The notes below the pieces were generated by a model. It ran no database searches and had not been told where the DNA came from. It saw nothing but the letters and a program-made list of their open reading frames with translations. A DNA stretch of 6,145 nt from a virus, in IMG/VR virus record IMGVR_UViG_3300045988_001610, positions 1 to 6,145 of that record. One strand, written 5' to 3'. A program made the position numbers and the translations under genes. Numbering within the stretch: position 1 is the stretch's first letter; each line of letters begins with the position of its first letter. Shown in pieces: positions 1-6,145 of the stretch.

Positions 1-55
1 GAACACCGCCAGCACCTGTATTATAAATAGGAGCGACACCACCAACTTCGATAGA
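1..55. repeat. Terminal direct repeat (copy 1), a circular-contig overlap
   Basis: Bases 1-55 (gaacaccgccagcacctgtattataaataggagcgacaccaccaacttcgataga) are identical to 6091-6145. The VP1 reading frame is continuous across the join. Confidence 0.98.
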
Positions 56-859
56 CGGAAGACTGACAGAAAGTTTACCGGAAGAACCAACAGGAACAAA
101 AGCTACATCACCAAACTGAGTGTTAGGCATAGCACCCATATAAAGATCTTTATTCCAATTGGCATAACGAAGCTCAAAAACTGAATCGTTCGGATTAGCA
201 TCAAAAAGATCTTTTGAAAAAGCTACAGGTGTAGAATCCTCACCGTTCCAAAAGTCGCAGTTATAAGTCCAAGGCTTATTTACTTCCCATTGAGAATGCC
301 GATAGTAATCATTATAAATCTTTTGATAGGCATAGAACGGGAAAGCAGATAGACGAAGATTAGCAAGCGTCTTAGACGGGTCAGTTTCACCTACACCTAA
401 ATAATTAAACAACTTGTAAAAACCACTTGAACGAGCAAAACCAAACATATTATTATGATATGTAGAAGCCTTAACATTGTCAACAGCTTTGTTTAAAGTC
501 GCAAGATCAACCCAAGGAAGTTTACGATTGAAAGTAATACTTTGAGTACCTGATGCAGCATAGTTAGGTTGATTCTCCATAGACATAATAGCCTCGTTTG
601 AATTCCTATACATCAAATGAAGAGGTACAAAGAACCATTCATAATACTCACGAATACGAGTAAATGCAGAAGTGTCAACAGGTTGTGTACGTGTAAACCA
701 TTCTTGCGAAACCTGAAATTTATCACCCGGGAGGCAAAATTTCCAATAAACAGGCAATAGTTCACCGACCTTAGCGGTAAAAGCATTTTTATTACCTAAA
801 TCAAATCCTGAACGGCGAGGTTTATTTTTAATATCGCCGTAAGAAAAAAGACCAGCCAT
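1..859 (-). CDS. VP1: Major capsid protein VP1 (phiX F-like), N-terminal part; the CDS wraps across the circular junction and continues at 6090 down to 5111
   Basis: ATG at 859-857. Hand translation gives MAGLFSYGDIKNKPRRSGFDLGNKNAFTAKVGELLPVYWKFCLPGDKFQVSQEWFTRTQPVDTSAFTRIREYYEWFFVPLHLMYRN...RYANWNKDLYMGAMPNTQFGDVA..., which I recognise as a Microviridae (Alpavirinae-like) capsid N-terminus. The frame stays open to base 1 and is in phase with 5111-6090: 859 + 980 = 1839 nt = 612 codons plus stop. The ORF track misses this part because it runs off the window edge. Confidence 0.95.
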   Translation of the reverse strand, partial: MAGLFSYGDIKNKPRRSGFDLGNKNAFTAKVGELLPVYWKFCLPGDKFQVSQEWFTRTQPVDTSAFTRIREYYEWFFVPLHLMYRNSNEAIMSMENQPNYAASGTQSITFNRKLPWVDLATLNKAVDNVKASTYHNNMFGFARSSGFYKLFNYLGVGETDPSKTLANLRLSAFPFYAYQKIYNDYYRHSQWEVNKPWTYNCDFWNGEDSTPVAFSKDLFDANPNDSVFELRYANWNKDLYMGAMPNTQFGDVAFVPVGSSGKLSVSLPSIEVGGVAPIYNTGAGGV

Positions 860-864
860 AAAAA

Positions 865-1074
865 TTAATCTTTAAAATTAAACTTAAGTTGAATTATCTC
901 CGTTTCCGAAAGAGCGTCAAGAGGTCTAACAGAAACATCAGTATTTTGCGAAATATGTCTATACTCAATTTCATATAAGTACTGTTTAAAATAATGAACA
1001 TAACTTTCAGGTATCCCGTCTAATGTATCATTATGAATAGACGGGAAACTCTCAATATCAATACCGTAAGCCAT
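865..1074 (-). CDS. Hypothetical small acidic protein (69 aa), function unknown
   Basis: The ATG at 1074-1072 shares one base with the peptidase TGA (TGATG). The stop lies 5 nt upstream of the VP1 ATG, so the ORF exactly fills the gap between two well-supported genes on the same strand. No motif recognised; net acidic. Confidence 0.6.
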   Translation of the reverse strand: MAYGIDIESFPSIHNDTLDGIPESYVHYFKQYLYEIEYRHISQNTDVSVRPLDALSETEIIQLKFNFKD

Positions 1075-1469
1075 CAGTTATCCCTTACAATAACTTCATG
1101 CCGATAAGCAGGAGAATAGGACACATGAACGAACTTCTTCTTCTGATAATAGATCAATTGATCAAAAGGAAGATCAGATTCAGCGATAAGATCAAAGAGT
1201 GCTTTCGGGTTATCACAACGAAGATCAGCAGCCAAACCTTGCATGTGCTGCGAAGTAGAAACACCACCAACTAAGCGGTTAAGGAACGGACTACGGAAAC
1301 CTGAAGTAACAACAATAGGTTTACCATACATTTCACGAACAGGATCAAGTATCCAACGGCAAAGCTCAAGCAGACGATTAATATCGTCCCAGTCGGGAAG
1401 ATTATTTTCCTGAGCAGTAGACGCCGTAAGAATCATCTCAGTGAAAGAAAAATACTTGGGTCTGTACAT
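1074..1469 (-). CDS. Zinc D-Ala-D-Ala carboxypeptidase-like peptidase, M15 / LAS family (probable endolysin)
   Basis: The sequence SGFRSPFLNRLVGGVSTSQHMQGLAADL contains the SGxRS...N...GG..S.H..G.A.D signature with H-x6-D (His codon 1245-1247, Asp codon 1224-1226). A downstream FVHVS (third His) fits Peptidase_M15_3 / phage T5-type L-alanoyl-D-glutamate peptidases. I prefer the ATG at 1469 (MYRPKYFSFTEM...). The ORF track's start at 1505 is a GTG that overlaps the VP4 3' end by 14 nt and remains possible. Confidence 0.85.
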   Translation of the reverse strand: MYRPKYFSFTEMILTASTAQENNLPDWDDINRLLELCRWILDPVREMYGKPIVVTSGFRSPFLNRLVGGVSTSQHMQGLAADLRCDNPKALFDLIAESDLPFDQLIYYQKKKFVHVSYSPAYRHEVIVRDN

Positions 1470-1491
1470 AGCTACAATGTTTAATAATGAA

Positions 1492-3102
1492 TCAATGTTT
1501 ATCACATTCGGCGATCAATGCGCAGTTCAAATCATTAAGATATTTGTGCTTTATACGCTGTCGATTATCTGCAGCAACCTCTGCATAGGCAGCTCGACAA
1601 AACGGAGATAAAGCCAGCACTTCACGATAAGAATTACGCATCAACTCGCCGTCAGTAAGTGGATAAAAATATCTAAAATCAACCTGAGTAGACAGGTAAT
1701 TGTTTTGAGACCAAGACTCAACCTTTAAAAGCTGATCATGAAGATGTTTAGCGTCCATATAGCTATAAAAGGAATAAATCGTTCGAAACGCTTTACGTAA
1801 TTGACCATAAAAAGCAATATGATTGGACGGAACAGTTATCCAATGATCACAAAGATTGCGATAAGCCAAAAGCAAGCGATACACAGCAGAACATCCCTCT
1901 AATTCGCTAAAATTGAGATACAAAGATAAACGACAAGCATTATAGATGAAACGAAGCGTTTCGGGGGCATTGTCCAAACTGTGATCAACTTGCAAATATT
2001 TTTTAATAACAAAGAAAGTACGCTTAGCCTGCTCAAACAAAGTCACTTCATCAAGGAACCCATATCTTGAGAGGACTTGAGGTATTTTAGAGACAAAGAG
2101 CGCAGTTCTAACGTTAGAATCAACATCCGATACAGAAGAGCGGTCAAGAATGGGGTATAGTCGATTGATAAGCGACCGCTTAGGGAGGCAAAGTGTAGGC
2201 TTACCACCGAGAGAGAGGTAAATTCCATCAACGAACTTATCGAATATTTCCGTGTTTTCTTCGGGCTTAAAAGCTTCGATAAACGAGCGTTCCGCAAAAT
2301 GCTGTGAAAAACGTCCGAATGGCGCGATTTTTCTATTACATCTATAAAACTCGGGAAGACAGTGAGAACTATTAAGATATCCCGCAACGTACGATGAAGC
2401 GGAAGACCATACACGTTGCGTATCTGAATTACCAAAGCGCCATGCCTTATCCACAAGCTGTCCAAATACCTGGGCGAGCCGTTCCGAGTCAAAGAAAAAT
2501 AAGATATGGAAATGCGGACGGAATGTTTTAGGACCGTATTCTCCGACAGTGTACGTATAAATCTTTTCATCTGTATATTTTTTTATTTGTTGATTAATTC
2601 TTTTATGAAATAGTTGAACATCTCGGTAATTAAGGTAGGGTAACAAATCGCCCATATTAGGATATTTAACAACAGAACGACCATCAGGATAAACAGTCCT
2701 ATCAAGATGCGTTTTAGCCAAGAGACCGGTAACAGCTTCATCACTGAGATTAGTTGGATAATCAAATTCTTCATCACAAAAAGACATTTTACGATTATAT
2801 CCTTGAGATGTAACATACGTGTAAACATGATCACGAGGTACACAACAAAAATGGTAAGAATCATTAAATTTATAAAACCTTGCAACAGGTATATGCTCTG
2901 TGGAATAAGTCAAAGTTACAAAGAAACAACAACGAGAAGATACAAGCTGAATGTTACAACGAAGTTCCTTCTGAATAGCTTTATTGGAAAGACACACCTC
3001 ACATTTACCACATTCAATATATATGGGATCACCTGTATATCTGTTTTTAATAATAACAGGATGCAAACAAGAGCAATATGGTTTAACTACTGGATTAATC
3101 AT
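1492..3102 (-). CDS. VP4: Replication initiation protein VP4 (rolling-circle HUH endonuclease, phiX gpA-like)
   Basis: RCR motif 1 is FFVTLTY. The HUH motif is RPHFHILFFF (HFHIL = 2500-2514). The double-tyrosine motif is SSYVAGYLN (YVAGY = 2377-2391; compare YVAKY in phiX174 A protein). The N-terminus has a Cys cluster, CSCLHP...CGKCEVC. The track's start at 3141 is a TTG; the ATG at 3102 (MINPVVKPYCSC...) is more likely. Confidence 0.95.
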   Translation of the reverse strand: MINPVVKPYCSCLHPVIIKNRYTGDPIYIECGKCEVCLSNKAIQKELRCNIQLVSSRCCFFVTLTYSTEHIPVARFYKFNDSYHFCCVPRDHVYTYVTSQGYNRKMSFCDEEFDYPTNLSDEAVTGLLAKTHLDRTVYPDGRSVVKYPNMGDLLPYLNYRDVQLFHKRINQQIKKYTDEKIYTYTVGEYGPKTFRPHFHILFFFDSERLAQVFGQLVDKAWRFGNSDTQRVWSSASSYVAGYLNSSHCLPEFYRCNRKIAPFGRFSQHFAERSFIEAFKPEENTEIFDKFVDGIYLSLGGKPTLCLPKRSLINRLYPILDRSSVSDVDSNVRTALFVSKIPQVLSRYGFLDEVTLFEQAKRTFFVIKKYLQVDHSLDNAPETLRFIYNACRLSLYLNFSELEGCSAVYRLLLAYRNLCDHWITVPSNHIAFYGQLRKAFRTIYSFYSYMDAKHLHDQLLKVESWSQNNYLSTQVDFRYFYPLTDGELMRNSYREVLALSPFCRAAYAEVAADNRQRIKHKYLNDLNCALIAECDKH

Positions 3103-3105
3103 GTA

Positions 3106-3142
3106 CAAAGATAAACGATAAAAATTGAAATGTGCAAGCAAA
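3106..3142 (-). promoter_or_regulatory. Possible Bacteroidota-type promoter upstream of VP4
   Basis: The minus strand reads TTTG (3142-3139)...TATCTTTG (3113-3106), which matches the Bacteroides -33 TTTG / -7 TAnnTTTG consensus. The -7 box ends 3 nt before the ATG at 3102, which would imply a near-leaderless mRNA. The spacing is only approximate. Confidence 0.2.
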
Positions 3143-3230
3143 CGTTTTTTTTTTAACTATAAATTAACATTAAAAACATACCTATATATATAGTGATGTC
3201 ACTTTTGCTAATCATGAACAAGGAGGTTTG

Positions 3231-3256
3231 AATCGGAAATAACAGTTAATCCGATT
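3231..3256. other. Perfect 7-bp stem / 12-nt loop hairpin in the AT-rich intergenic region
   Basis: aatcgga (3231-3237) pairs with tccgatt (3250-3256) around the loop aataacagttaa. It is nested within an 8-bp inverted repeat, cacttttg (3200-3207) / caaaagtg (3266-3273). Confidence 0.4.
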
Positions 3257-3290
3257 TGCTTCGCACAAAAGTGTTAGAACTTCGTACCAT

Positions 3291-3312
3291 TTATTAACAT
3301 AACTTTATGATG
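3291..3312 (-). promoter_or_regulatory. dif / XerD-arm-like AT-rich palindrome (candidate attP or Rep recognition site)
   Basis: The minus strand reads CATAA-AG-TTATGTTAATAA. TTATGTTAA matches the first 9 nt of the E. coli dif XerD arm (TTATGTTAAAT), and CATAA matches the inner end of the XerC arm (GGTGCGCATAA). The spacer is 2 nt rather than 6, and the outer XerC arm matches poorly. Confidence 0.25.
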
Positions 3313-3510
3313 CCTCCGGCGGCCACGGCTGCGGCCCGTGGACAACCGACGTTTTTTTCATTCTTCGCTCCCGCTCGACATAGAGATTTAGGGAGCGTGC
3401 CTGCTCCCCCCAGAGGGACCCCCCATGCGCTGGACGGAAAGAGGGGACAGGTAGAATAGTGAAGCAGGAGAGCCAAACGGCTAAGGGCTGACTCATCACG
3501 AGCCAGCCGA
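3311..3510. other. GC-rich, hairpin-dense island in the VP2-VP4 intergenic region (unassigned: candidate complementary-strand origin, structured RNA or acquired segment)
   Basis: Hand count gives 123/200 G+C here, against 45/160 in 3141-3300 and 42/100 in 3541-3640. Stem-loops: 3478-3482+3486-3489 pair with 3501-3504+3505-3509 (9 bp, 3-nt bulge). 3391-3396 pairs with 3403-3408. 3366-3372 pairs with 3391-3397. 3317-3328 pairs with 3336-3351. 3400-3405 pairs with 3463-3468. C6 runs lie at 3406-3411 and 3419-3424, opposite G blocks. Confidence 0.7.
3317..3358 (+). terminator. Intrinsic-terminator-like GC hairpin followed by T7, oriented on the plus (non-coding) strand
   Basis: Inner stem ccacgg (3323-3328) pairs with ccgtgg (3336-3341), with the 7-nt loop ctgcggc. 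Outer stem cggcgg (3317-3322) pairs with ccgacg (3346-3351), with one mismatch and a 4-nt bulge. TTTTTTT at 3352-3358 follows immediately. On the minus strand the run precedes the hairpin as A7, so the element is not a terminator for the phage genes. Confidence 0.45.
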
Positions 3511-3537
3511 TAGTAATTAACCAACAAAATAAACACA

Positions 3538-4602
3538 CTACCTACGATAGCGTTGACGAGTAGAAGAATAACCCTGATTATCGTCAAATTGTTCTATCAC
3601 AGAACGACCTTCACGACGGAAAGAACCGAACTTCAACAATGAACCAACGGCATTAGAAAGACCATCAATAAACTTGCCTGCGTTATTGATACCTCTATCC
3701 CAACGTGCTTTAACGGGGTCCTGAGACCAACGATCCATCTTACCTGTACGAAAACCAATATCATTGGAAAATTGAGAATAACCACGGTTAAAAGCAGCTT
3801 CATTCTCTTTAGCTGTACGGGTAGCATCTATCACGGCATCAGCAGTAGAACGAGCGATCTTATTGGAAATATGTTGACCTTGTGTACGTGCTTCAATTTC
3901 CAAGCGAGAAGCAATCAGATTCTTTGCTTGTTCTTCGGAAATAACACCCTCACGAATCATATTCCAATATTGTGCACCATTCATTTGCAACTGTATGCGC
4001 TTTTCCTCAGGAAGATACATATTCAGAACTTCCTGTGCATCATTGCGAAGAAGAAGATTAGCTCTCTGTGCAATCGCAACATCCGCTTGTCTCTGAGTAA
4101 AATAAGTATCTGCCATAGTCTTTCCAATCTGAGATTCATAAGTAGGAACACCATACTTATCAAGTAAATCAGACTCGGTGCTAGTTTTACGAGCATCAGA
4201 CATAGATTTCATGGCAGAGGCATAAGAAGCAACATCACCAATCATATTAGTAGGCGTAAACTGATAAGGCGAACCACCTGAACCAGAAGCACCTGAAACA
4301 GTATTAGCAGAAGTAGAAGAAGCTGTACCAGCAGAACCACCGCTCATCATCAAATAAGGATTTAAACCAGCAGCTTCTAAGCGTGCACGCTGATTTTTAG
4401 CGGAGTTCCACTCATTAGTAGCATCAAACATTGACCGAGCAAAGTCACGTGACTTTTGAGATTCAGAACTCGCCCATTCGTTCTGAATTCCCTGCATTTC
4501 AAGCTGATGTTTCCTATTCTTATCTCCTTGCTTATTATTGCCAATTTGATTAACGATGCCACCAGCTAAAGAACCAGCAGCACCGATTGCAGCACCAATC
4601 AT
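3538..4602 (-). CDS. VP2: Minor capsid / DNA pilot protein VP2 (phiX H-like)
   Basis: 354 aa. It has a Gly/Ala-rich N-terminus (MIGAAIGAAGSLAGG), the conserved-looking NQRARLEAAGLNPYLMM segment, a Gly/Ser/Thr low-complexity linker and a coiled, charged C-terminal half. These features and its position after VP1 are typical of Microviridae VP2. The ATG overlaps the upstream stop as ATGA. Confidence 0.9.
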   Translation of the reverse strand: MIGAAIGAAGSLAGGIVNQIGNNKQGDKNRKHQLEMQGIQNEWASSESQKSRDFARSMFDATNEWNSAKNQRARLEAAGLNPYLMMSGGSAGTASSTSANTVSGASGSGGSPYQFTPTNMIGDVASYASAMKSMSDARKTSTESDLLDKYGVPTYESQIGKTMADTYFTQRQADVAIAQRANLLLRNDAQEVLNMYLPEEKRIQLQMNGAQYWNMIREGVISEEQAKNLIASRLEIEARTQGQHISNKIARSTADAVIDATRTAKENEAAFNRGYSQFSNDIGFRTGKMDRWSQDPVKARWDRGINNAGKFIDGLSNAVGSLLKFGSFRREGRSVIEQFDDNQGYSSTRQRYRR

Positions 4603-5099
4603 TCCGTAGACGATTGGGCGACAGATTGAGTAGACTGAGTAGGCTCAACAACAGGAGCCGACAAAGAAGAAGCATAAGCCTGCAAATCAGATTCTAAAAA
4701 TTGACCCTCAGAAAGAAGATGATCAAGCCAAGAAGCCATTTCAGTAGCCGACTGTATATTGCGATCCTTACAATAATCAAGCAAGAAATCATCATTGTAG
4801 TTACGTGTATAATTCGAAGAGCGAGGAACAAGGCTATTCATATAACGGCGTAACTGAGTCTGATTCATATTGTCAATAGCTTTTTGACCAAACAAAATGC
4901 CATAATCAGAACAGAACGTAACAGAACCATCTGCATTATGATCAAAAAGAAAATCACCAACGGGATTAGGTTCAGGTAAAATCCCCTGAGCAAGCATTTC
5001 AGAGGTCACAACACACCGACAACTCTGCGAGTGATCGGAAATATCAGAGTTAAGCGAATATTTCACAAAACCTCTTAAGGGAGTATTTTTTTCAGACAT
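4599..5099 (-). CDS. Hypothetical protein (166 aa); possible internal scaffolding protein, by position only
   Basis: The ATG at 5099 lies 11 nt after the VP1 stop, and the TGA overlaps the VP2 ATG (ATGA, 4599-4602). The ORF fills the VP1-VP2 gap on the coding strand. No motif recognised. The scaffold assignment rests only on analogy with microvirus gene order. Confidence 0.75.
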   Translation of the reverse strand: MSEKNTPLRGFVKYSLNSDISDHSQSCRCVVTSEMLAQGILPEPNPVGDFLFDHNADGSVTFCSDYGILFGQKAIDNMNQTQLRRYMNSLVPRSSNYTRNYNDDFLLDYCKDRNIQSATEMASWLDHLLSEGQFLESDLQAYASSLSAPVVEPTQSTQSVAQSSTE

Positions 5100-5110
5100 A
5101 ACGATAAATA

Positions 5111-6145
5111 TTAATAAGGTAAACCATCGTAAGACAAATTGCGAGCTACACGGACATCAAAATCACAATTGACAAGCAATTGATCAGTATTCCATGAACC
5201 ATCAGCAACAACACCGAAAATAGGATTGACAACAGACGGATTTATTTTAAACCACGTATAGAAGCCAAAATGCGCACCACCTGGAACATTGTTATTATCA
5301 AAATAAATCTTAAGATAATCCTGTCCAATAGGAGCAGTCCAAGATTTTAAAGTGTCAATAAAAGCACCTCGAACAACATCAACAGACGTTTTCCAACTGA
5401 TATAGCGAGGAACATAACCGAAAGGTCTAGGCTCTTTAATCGGCTGAACATCAGAAGTATTCAATAATGGATAAGATGGGAGTTCTTCAAAACCAATTGA
5501 ATCCAATTCAGGAACAGGCCACGAATCACCATCAACAGTAGTCATGAACTGAAGATCAGGACCCGTTGGGGCATAATCCAACAAAGGAACTGCGTGATAA
5601 ATACACATCAGAATACCATGCTCGGTAGTTTTAAATGTTTCAGGTTTATTTACACGATAACCACCAATACCTTTACCGCGGATAATAGCTTCATCAGAAG
5701 AAAGGTTAGTATTTTCAACAGCGGAAATATCAATCGAACCATCAAAACCACAAATACGAGTAGAACGATGGGAAGTGATCGGATTTGGAGAAACACCAAA
5801 GTGAGCTTTAACCTGTGCAGCATAATTTTGTCCATTCGCCTGAGCAATCTCTTTCCACTTCTGTAAACACTCAGCTGCACGAAGTTGAAGAACATCAAAC
5901 TTAGAAGAAAACTCGTAAGGAACTTGGATAGTCTTAGCATTGGTTTTCAGATTGGCAACAGAGGCATCAGAAACAGCATAAAAATAAGGACGTAAGGCGT
6001 CTGTTTTATTAGCACCATAAGCCGTAACAGTCTGTCCATTCGAAGGAGCACCTTCAATAGCGCCACGAACACCGATCTGAGCATCAGGATGAACACCGCC
6101 AGCACCTGTATTATAAATAGGAGCGACACCACCAACTTCGATAGA
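5111..6145 (-). CDS. VP1: Major capsid protein VP1, C-terminal part (6091-6145 duplicates 1-55)
   Basis: Hand translation from 6145 downward is open with no stop: SIEVGGVAPIYNTGAGGVHPDAQIGVRGAIEGAPSNGQTVTAYGANKTDALRPYFYAVSDASVANLKTNAKTIQVPYEFSSKFDVLQLRAAECLQKW... This runs into the listed 165-aa ORF (MCIYHAVPLLDY...SYDGLPY, stop at 5111-5113). The listed ORF begins at 5608 only because that is the first Met in the frame. The peptide SIEVGGVAPIYNTGAGGV is read from both window ends, which confirms continuity. Confidence 0.95.
   Translation of the reverse strand, partial: SIEVGGVAPIYNTGAGGVHPDAQIGVRGAIEGAPSNGQTVTAYGANKTDALRPYFYAVSDASVANLKTNAKTIQVPYEFSSKFDVLQLRAAECLQKWKEIAQANGQNYAAQVKAHFGVSPNPITSHRSTRICGFDGSIDISAVENTNLSSDEAIIRGKGIGGYRVNKPETFKTTEHGILMCIYHAVPLLDYAPTGPDLQFMTTVDGDSWPVPELDSIGFEELPSYPLLNTSDVQPIKEPRPFGYVPRYISWKTSVDVVRGAFIDTLKSWTAPIGQDYLKIYFDNNNVPGGAHFGFYTWFKINPSVVNPIFGVVADGSWNTDQLLVNCDFDVRVARNLSYDGLPY
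6091..6145. repeat. Terminal direct repeat (copy 2), a circular-contig overlap
   Basis: Exact 55-nt copy of 1-55. It implies a 6090-nt circular unit. Confidence 0.98.

Follow-up and report, generated by a model that had tools for sequence, protein, structure and literature searches.

A GC-rich, multi-hairpin module between the pilot and Rep genes of a Bacteroidota microvirus: a candidate accessory site for single-strand initiation

Introduction

To our knowledge, the conversion of a single-stranded DNA (ssDNA) phage genome into duplex is known in just a few Escherichia coli phages (phiX174, G4 and the filamentous phages), and we know of nothing on the replication origins of the microviruses of Bacteroidota. 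Microviruses abound in the human gut, where they rank among the most common viruses. Here we analyze a GC-rich island of hairpins in a 6,145-nt stretch of microvirus DNA (IMG/VR virus record IMGVR_UViG_3300045988_001610, positions 1 to 6,145), referred to below as the window, whose coordinates are used throughout. The island lies in the spacer upstream of the replication gene Rep. We propose, with about even confidence, that it is an accessory module for single-strand initiation on the packaged viral strand, resembling the single-strand origins (sso) of plasmids or the complementary-strand origin (oric) of phage G4.

At G4-type origins, the template is ssDNA coated with single-strand-binding protein (SSB), and primase begins its RNA primer at a specific CTG adjoining hairpin I. 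The island resembles the DnaG-dependent oric of G4, St-1, phiK and alpha3 in being intergenic, in lying on the packaged strand, and in carrying several adjacent hairpins and the mini-hairpin motif GCGNNAGC. Both G4 oric and the island are GC-rich relative to their genomes (0.58 versus 0.46 in G4, 0.61 versus 0.39 here). A check of the G4 genome placed GCGAAAGC of the F-G spacer inside the annotated 'RNA primer of replication'; its counterpart here is GCGGGAGC, with GCGAAGC nearby, and an invariant CTG is found within CTGCTTCAC (3459-3467, viral strand). Unlike G4 oric, however, which has three hairpins in about 136 nt and no sequence similarity to the island, the present locus has about eight hairpins plus a separate core, occupies the pilot-Rep rather than the F-G spacer, belongs to a phage of another host phylum, and is dispensable in relatives. 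The primosome assembly site of phiX174 (n'/PriA hairpins, F-G spacer) likewise consists of viral-strand intergenic hairpins, and its GCGAAGC is identical to P4, a mini-hairpin of the core beside the island; the phiX174 spacer, by contrast, is not GC-rich (0.43 versus 0.45) and shows no homology.

The GCGNAGC/GCGNNAGC family of DNA mini-hairpins, described by Hirao and colleagues, melts at 70-76°C as DNA, against 39°C for r(GCGAAAGC), and a DNA fragment with two copies of one such mini-hairpin bound SSB poorly (PMC13037366). The motif is present at the primase primer start (GCGAAAGC in G4 ssDNA, GCGTTAGC in St-1 and alpha3), in ssiA of RSF1010 (CCGAAGG) and in the hairpin promoters of phage N4 (PMC13037366). 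RSF1010 ssiA and ssiB and the N4 promoters are, like the hairpins studied here, ssDNA hairpins with C-GAA-G or C-GGA-G caps, but they are recognised by enzymes that the elements themselves encode (RepB' and N4 vRNAP). This 6-kb phage encodes none: a Pfam scan of the window proteins revealed no primase or polymerase gene.

The elements ssoA, ssoT, ssoU and ssoW, and sso1 of the integrative and conjugative element (ICE) ICEBs1, resemble the island in several ways: they are 150-300 nt long, do not code for protein, fold extensively and are strand-specific; they stand apart from the origin linked to Rep, can be exchanged among relatives and are often non-essential. Their behaviour as cassettes on plasmids was reportedly described by Kramer, Khan and Espinosa. 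An ssoA is recognised by its long, imperfect palindrome, its RSB site and the TAGCGT motif (CS-6) of its loop. RSB and CS-6 motifs were not found in the element, no systematic search for them having been made; the window has many short hairpins instead of a long single palindrome, and TAGCGA is present in long-linker variants of relatives only. Whereas sso elements are found on plasmids and ICEs of Firmicutes, the island is on a phage of Bacteroidota. The activity of an sso is orientation-specific and reduces the accumulation of ssDNA (PMC4595007). In very small microviruses, conserved spacer hairpins with compensatory changes have been proposed as negative-strand initiation sites (PMC9865509). 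The element can be likened to known complementary-strand origins, yet by sequence it is a member of none of them.

Results

The island is a genuine part of the phage genome

Positions 1-55 of the window are identical to 6091-6145. This 55-nt direct repeat is an assembly overlap, and the genome is a circular microvirus genome of 6090 nt. Every gene is on the minus strand, according to the list of open reading frames (ORFs) and to Pfam, and in Microviridae the packaged strand has mRNA sense; the viral strand is therefore the minus strand of the window. The plus strand is skewed toward A over T, as expected from the T-rich viral strands of this family. The sole large spacer of the genome (3103-3537) separates the pilot gene from the Rep gene and contains the island. 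Positions 3311-3510 hold 123 G+C out of 200 (0.615) and form the top 200-nt window of a genome with a mean G+C of 0.394 (standard deviation 0.05), in which the highest 200-nt window outside the island reaches 0.485.

A recount reproduced exactly the values given in the initial annotation, both for the island and for its surroundings (3141-3300, 45/160 or 0.281; 3541-3640, 42/100 or 0.42). The alternating C- and G-blocks that it had reported are present, with C-runs on the plus strand at 3406-3411 and 3419-3424, as are the stem-loops, some of them mutually exclusive (H1, 3323-3341, versus H2, 3332-3348; helix X versus H5 plus H6). A G-quadruplex seems unlikely, just two G-runs being present. 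The description of a sharply bounded island has to be amended: the G+C block is real, but its right-hand 30 nt (3486-3508) are a separate, older terminator-like hairpin that is also found in relatives lacking the island. The inserted module proper runs from 3311 to about 3478. Read 5' to 3' on the viral strand, the spacer contains the following features.

3486-3508, minus strand: terminator-like hairpin after the pilot gene, GGCTGGCTC-GTGAT-GAGTCAGCC, outside the insert
3459-3474, minus strand: pyrimidine-rich tract, GGCTCTCC-TGCTTCAC, containing CTGCTTCAC, which is invariant in 21 of 21 sequences
3423-3433, minus strand: hairpin H6, CCA-GCGCA-TGG, without covariation
3409-3417, minus strand: hairpin H5, CCC-TCT-GGG, 98% paired
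3391-3408, minus strand: hairpin H4b, GGGAGC-loop-GCTCCC, arms invariant and 100% paired
3374-3385, minus strand: hairpin H3, CTC-TATGTC-GAG, an RNAalifold prediction, weakly supported
3367-3374, minus strand: mini-hairpin Hm, GCGGGAGC, an exact GCGNNAGC motif
3352-3358, minus strand: A7 tract, read as T7 on the plus strand and unchanged across the 23 elements
3332-3348, minus strand: hairpin H2, CGGTT-GTCCACG-GGCCG
3323-3341, minus strand: hairpin H1', CCACGGGC-CGCA-GCCGTGG, mutually exclusive with H2
3312-3320, minus strand: mini-hairpin H0, GCC-GGA-GGC
3290-3311, minus strand: AT-rich variable linker, left border of the insert
3190-3289, minus strand: block 1, the conserved structured core that adjoins the island, next to Rep
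3279-3285, minus strand: P0 of block 1, ACGAAGT
3200-3207 with 3266-3273, minus strand: P1 of block 1
3257-3265, minus strand: P4 of block 1, TGC-GAA-GCA (GCGAAGC)
3231-3237 with 3250-3256, minus strand: P3 of block 1, with a 12-nt loop
3208-3230, minus strand: pyrimidine-rich conserved joiner of block 1
3106-3113 and 3100-3102, minus strand: Bacteroides-type -7 box TATCTTTG and Rep start codon, read from the sequence

Among 50,697 phage records, blastn identified only one relative, phiHBP1 (PV598014, L001 in our numbering of relatives), a cultured phage of Bacteroides fragilis; other phage groups gave no match. In phiHBP1 the island lies at about 2440-2620. As far as we know, phiHBP1 is the sole cultured Bacteroides microvirus. 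Its spacer is 77% identical to that of the window, with 1-nt indels, and the element is 77-85% identical, with 1-nt and 3-nt indels; at the protein level the identity is 60% for Rep and 74% for the pilot protein. Motif scans of IMG/VR and of metagenomes, in which the metagenome matches were all microvirus-sized contigs or fragments of such, brought the number of independent copies to 23 (the window, phiHBP1, 8 IMG/VR genomes and 13 metagenome contigs), after L006 and L015 had been left out as chance pattern matches. All known copies share a single locus and orientation. Since PCR and Sanger sequencing confirmed the phiHBP1 genome, a chimeric assembly is excluded. With the same element at the same place in 22 other independent assemblies, the island is a genuine phage part.

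Hairpins are conserved and appear to fold on the viral strand

The folding energy of the island was just modestly better than that of dinucleotide shuffles (minus strand, z = -2.3 as RNA and -2.4 as DNA; plus strand, -1.85), so that the case for structure rests on the comparison with relatives. A curated structure was scored on an alignment of 21 viral-strand sequences (A2), with 500 shuffles. Seven pairs showed compensatory double changes, a number reached by 0 of the 500 shuffles, and the covariation score was 0.118, versus 0.050 for shuffled alignments and at most 0.047 when partners were slid. The compensatory pairs inside the island belong to H0 (two) and H2 (one, G-C to C-G in L001 and L022), to which the switches of the Hm stem between GC/GC and GAC/GTC may be added. 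The other island helices show no variation and are uninformative either way. Since compensatory changes are few and the remaining helices invariant, the alignment makes a moderate structural case inside the island. The changes seen in relatives preserve pairing and do not follow a protein-like codon-position pattern.

Three versions of the H0 stem were found (GCC/GGC, CCC/GGG and CTC/GAG), with GGA or GGAA as loop. Hm takes the forms GAC-GGGA-GTC, GC-GGTA-GC or GAC-GGTA-GTC in relatives: both sides of the stem change and the loop keeps G..A. The arms of H1' are invariant and complementary throughout A2, with an inserted base in L010 that fills a bulge, and its loop is CGNA with all four N, or GGAA (GCGGAAGC) in L001 and L022. 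Between the invariant arms of H4b the loop has 3 or 6 nt and four different sequences; H5 is adjacent and has the G-run 3406-3411 in common with it. The arms of H6 are kept (95% of cells paired) while its loop varies in length and sequence (CGCA, CTGCA, CCAGC), and H3 has 94% of cells paired with zero compensatory changes. The 5' half of the pyrimidine tract (3467-3474) can in addition pair with the G-run 3417-3424 to form helix X, which overlaps H5 and H6. A long-range helix between GCTCCC (3367-3372) and GGGAGC (3391-3396), our first reading of this region, was dropped because the 'mismatch' A of five relatives is a loop base of Hm and GGGAGC pairs with the invariant GCTCCC downstream.

The one-sided changes have a polarity. 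H2 includes 6 cells of G:T wobble pairing on the viral strand alone (window, L004, L018 and L025), and helix X has 7 one-sided cells, each a C to T change that keeps a G:T pair on the viral strand. All one-sided changes in H2, helix X, P1 (L007) and H1' (L011) give G:T on the minus strand and would give A:C on the plus strand. This wobble pattern argues for the gene-sense, packaged strand as the strand that folds.

The same polarity bears on the possibility of an antisense small RNA gene on the plus strand, which would start near 3190, pass through block 1, H0 and H1 with its UNCG loop, and end at H2 plus T7 (3352-3358). On the plus strand H1 does have a C(UNCG)G loop with all four N, H2 plus the invariant T7 was called as an intrinsic terminator in L005, and the AT-rich DNA upstream of 3190 contains -7-like boxes in some relatives. 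Plus-strand H2 is, however, degenerate in the window (3 bp) and in L004, L018 and L025, being paired on the other strand only, and H2 pairing accounts for the constancy of C and G in the 'UNCG' loop. Moreover, the window gave no terminator call at H2 plus T7, the putative promoter is not conserved, relatives without the island lack a plus-strand terminator after block 1, and positions 3359-3478 would be left unaccounted for. Microviridae have no known antisense genes save one unconfirmed ORF (PMC3394797). We consider such a gene very unlikely.

The hairpin loops are of the DNA type

Hairpins capped by C-G(N)NA-G are concentrated on the viral strand, with 94 across the 21 elements versus 13 on the complement and 4-6 fixed positions per element. 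In the window there are 4 on the viral strand versus 0 on the complement, where 1.26 were expected from shuffles (P = 0.017). The exact motif GCG(N)NAGC appears twice on the viral strand of the window, both times in this spacer, and nowhere on the complement genome-wide; in 15 island genomes, 29 of the 38 viral-strand motifs lie inside the element. The mini-hairpins of the window (GCGGGAGC at 3367-3374, GCGAAGC at 3258-3264, GCC-GGA-GGC at 3312-3320 and ACGAAGT at 3279-3285) are conserved and their stems covary. Among the 52 block-1 sequences recovered, 50 have a G(N)NA loop at P4, with GAA, GAAA, GGA, GTA, GCA, GATA and GGTA as its forms and all four N in use. Loops at one position alternate between tri- and tetraloops (GAA/GAAA; GGA/GGAA in H0), and that of Hm between GGGA and GGTA. 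This variation fits the DNA mini-hairpin family and seems a poor fit to RNA GNRA loops, which cover just some of the variants.

A structured RNA on the sense transcript, acting either as a 3'-untranslated stabiliser or terminator cluster after the pilot gene or as a leader or attenuator upstream of Rep, would have the polarity of the viral strand, and the wobble evidence fits it equally well. GAAA, GGAA and GGGA are GNRA tetraloops, and the 3486-3508 hairpin of the window is without a good U-tract, which makes read-through plausible. Many of the loops are however triloops (GAA, GGA, GTA, GCA) or non-GNRA tetraloops (GGTA, GATA), and the alternation of one hairpin between loops of 3 and 4 nt, which destabilises RNA hairpins, is a common trait of DNA mini-hairpins. 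The island comes after a strong intrinsic terminator in most relatives, and the -7 box of Rep lies downstream of the island, beside the ATG. Nor did the element match Rfam. Scanning 3100-3700 with cmscan (4227 models, E <= 10) gave just one chance snoRNA match, outside the island, a scan of 8 related genomes at E <= 1 gave nothing in the spacer, and ARAGORN found no tRNA and no tmRNA, in agreement with the earlier failure to recognise ribozyme, tRNA or tmRNA cores by eye. We regard a sense RNA as unlikely, and the structured RNA or ribozyme suggested at first is left unsupported, given the empty Rfam search and loops of the DNA rather than the RNA type.

The hairpin after the pilot gene is homologous to the one that directly follows block 1 in relatives without the island (loop GACTCATCACGAGCC), and its stems vary by lineage. 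Together with its T-run it scores as an intrinsic terminator on the sense strand in most relatives, and in L005-type relatives 12 pairs and a T-run gave such a call. At the other end of the spacer, the -7 box (TAnnTTTG) stands 3-4 nt upstream of the Rep ATG; relatives are arranged alike, and the box of the window is perfect and 3 nt from the ATG. This consensus is said to go back to Bayley et al. 2000. The position of the box suggests that the Rep mRNA is leaderless or near-leaderless; a sigma-70 promoter scan is uninformative in Bacteroides. The element thus sits between a sense-strand terminator-like hairpin and the Rep promoter, a position in which it is probably little transcribed and which would be a natural place for a replication signal.

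An exchangeable cassette beside a widely conserved core

A profile search with the element detected about 30 further microviruses, with Rep proteins 28-44% identical, in which block 1 but not the island precedes Rep. On 49 sequences, 98% of the cells of block 1 are paired, 8 pairs are compensatory and the covariation is 0.316, versus 0.107 when shuffled; on this alignment the structural case for the core is strong. Genomes of the L049 and L043 types, without the island, have block 1, then about 25 AT-rich bases, then the terminator hairpin with its GACTCATCACGAGCC loop. At the same site between block 1 and the pilot gene, L027-L033 have a different GC-rich (0.5-0.68) multi-hairpin island, about 400 nt long, on whose viral strand several hairpins have C-GAA-G or C-GAAT-G caps (for example in the L030 spacer); it has no Rfam match and no sequence similarity to the island of the window. 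There are also two alternative linker modules (window 3290-3322; L001-L004, L008, L013, L018, L022), the long one having an extra viral-strand GCGAAGC or GCGGAGC. Their distribution is mosaic relative to the flanking genes, the window and L002 differing in module at 94% Rep identity, which implies recombination inside the spacer. The island is, on this pattern, an accessory insert in a locus made of a conserved core and exchangeable hairpin cassettes. Rolling-circle plasmids offer a parallel, with a double-strand origin tied to Rep and single-strand origins that can be swapped.

The 12-nt loop of P3 differs by Rep lineage while its stem covaries, and is therefore a candidate nick or recognition site of Rep that may mark the viral-strand origin. 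The island could also be part of that origin, its hairpins serving as Rep-binding or Rep-positioning sites that aid nicking or termination at the block 1 nick site. It is located directly upstream of the Rep gene, beside block 1, where the P3 loop resembles a specificity loop, and HUH nucleases often recognise ssDNA hairpins. On the other hand, relatives that keep block 1 and Rep lack the island, phages with 94%-identical Rep have different linker modules, and gpA of phiX174 needs no such hairpin array. We give this possibility little credence.

The island could alternatively be selfish or neutral, a mobile or recombined segment rich in hairpins (MITE, REP or PATE-like) without function for the phage. 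This would fit its sharp borders, a G+C content distant from the genomic average, its patchy occurrence in relatives, the mosaic linkers and the other insert that L027-L033 have at this site. Yet two exact island motifs (21-22 specified bases) had zero matches in 185,579 reference genomes, one per species, a search by which a diverged donor would be missed, and blastn gave no match to the island in 72,556 plasmids, as in other phage groups. The confinement of metagenome matches to microvirus-sized contigs or their fragments, the single locus and orientation, the lack of terminal inverted repeats or target duplications, and the maintenance of hairpins by compensatory changes and strand-specific wobble also speak against an insert of this kind, which we find quite improbable. 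Of the idea of a captured segment, what stands is that the module is present in some lineages and absent from others; exact-motif scans and blastn against plasmids and phages yielded no donor.

A dif/Xer-like attachment site was also considered and rejected: the island has no 28-bp dif-like palindrome and the exact-motif scans, which were not aimed at integrated microviruses, were empty. The interval from block 1 to the Rep start of L049-type loci contains a perfect palindrome (ATGTTATA/TATAACAT), absent from the window, that could be an operator or a Xer/dif-like site.

The island is non-coding

No reading frame is kept across the 21 relatives, in which frame shifts and several in-frame stops are found, and variation in the element tracks base pairing rather than codon position. 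ORFs of 77 and 97 aa are present on the minus strand of the window, as well as an 18-aa ORF (MKKTS) from 3361, and a coding sequence (CDS) is annotated in phiHBP1. The 77-aa frame breaks at several points and has stops in L016, L008, L018, L010, L003 and L001, the 18-aa ORF contains a TAG in L002, L016 and L013, and neither the 77-aa ORF nor the phiHBP1 CDS has a Pfam match. The small gene envisaged in the initial annotation is thus effectively refuted, and we assign a negligible probability to any of these frames. In phiHBP1 the CDS, a 136-aa 'hypothetical protein' (2326-2736), overlies the non-coding element. With neither a frame kept in relatives nor a Pfam match, this CDS was probably called spuriously, in DNA that is GC-rich and poor in stops.

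The genes of the window are as follows.

Minus strand: capsid (Pfam Phage_F)
Minus strand: 166-aa protein
3538-4602, minus strand: pilot-like protein of 354 aa, stop codon at 3538-3540
1492-3102, minus strand: Rep (Pfam REP_ORF2-G2P)
1074-1505, minus strand: M15 peptidase, 143-aa ORF (Peptidase_M15_3, E = 2e-21), the lysis-type peptidase known from some gut microviruses
Minus strand: 69-aa protein

Discussion

The island is non-coding and conserved, its hairpins covary with a polarity that marks one strand, its loops are of the DNA type, and it is present or absent as a module. Among the explanations offered in the initial annotation, a complementary-strand origin on the packaged strand is the one best supported, by the strand-specific wobble, the DNA-type loops and the precedent of G4 and phiX174. 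It needs one correction: the island is accessory, and lies beside a more widely conserved core (3190-3290) that had not been set apart there. In the scheme that we propose, the ejected viral strand would be coated by host SSB save where it is folded. Positions 3311-3478 and the core would fold into a row of short GC-rich hairpins, several of them capped by C-G(N)NA-G loops, which are very stable in DNA, and this patch would be left free of SSB. This structured patch might then be recognised by the host priming machinery, for which G4 (primase), phiX174 (the PriA primosome), and plasmid ssoA and the M13 origin (RNA polymerase) offer models, and the enzyme would make the RNA primer from which complementary-strand (SS to RF) synthesis starts. 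To a core that seems to suffice in relatives, the island would add about eight hairpins, much as sso cassettes do on rolling-circle plasmids.

Several observations weigh against a priming signal. The element has no sequence homology to a characterised origin (searched by nhmmer with the profile of the element, the G4 and phiX174 genomes had no match at E <= 10), and the existence of relatives without the island means that it is not the sole or essential origin. Inside the island only three base pairs show double compensatory change, most helices being invariant among 21 fairly close sequences, and the folding energy is just about 2.4 standard deviations below shuffles. As RNA, half of the loop variants (GAAA, GGAA, GGGA) also make good GNRA loops, and a sense RNA would have viral-strand polarity; the plus-strand form of H1 has a loop of UNCG type, and H2 plus T7 of that strand is terminator-like in L005. 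The scheme does not account for the invariant A7 tract and CTGCTTCAC. It also leaves unexplained a further observation, that the two C-runs at 3406-3411 and 3419-3424 (G-runs on the viral strand) covary in length among relatives (5/5, 6/6, 7/7).

There is a small chance that the island is no priming signal but a new phage-borne structured nucleic acid, with cassettes swapped among lineages. It might then be the first non-coding RNA of Microviridae (an antisense small RNA ending at H2 plus T7, or a sense RNA), or an array of ssDNA hairpins that serves as a decoy for, or a shield against, host nucleases, defence proteins or proteins that bind ssDNA.

As an accessory single-strand initiation module, the island would provide a concrete, conserved origin candidate with base-level anatomy, in which a core shared by a broad lineage is combined with exchangeable GC-rich cassettes, both containing DNA mini-hairpin motifs. 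The presence of the element in the cultured phage phiHBP1 makes the idea directly testable there. The cassette exchange seen in the spacer suggests that such modules could tune replication efficiency or host range in these microviruses.

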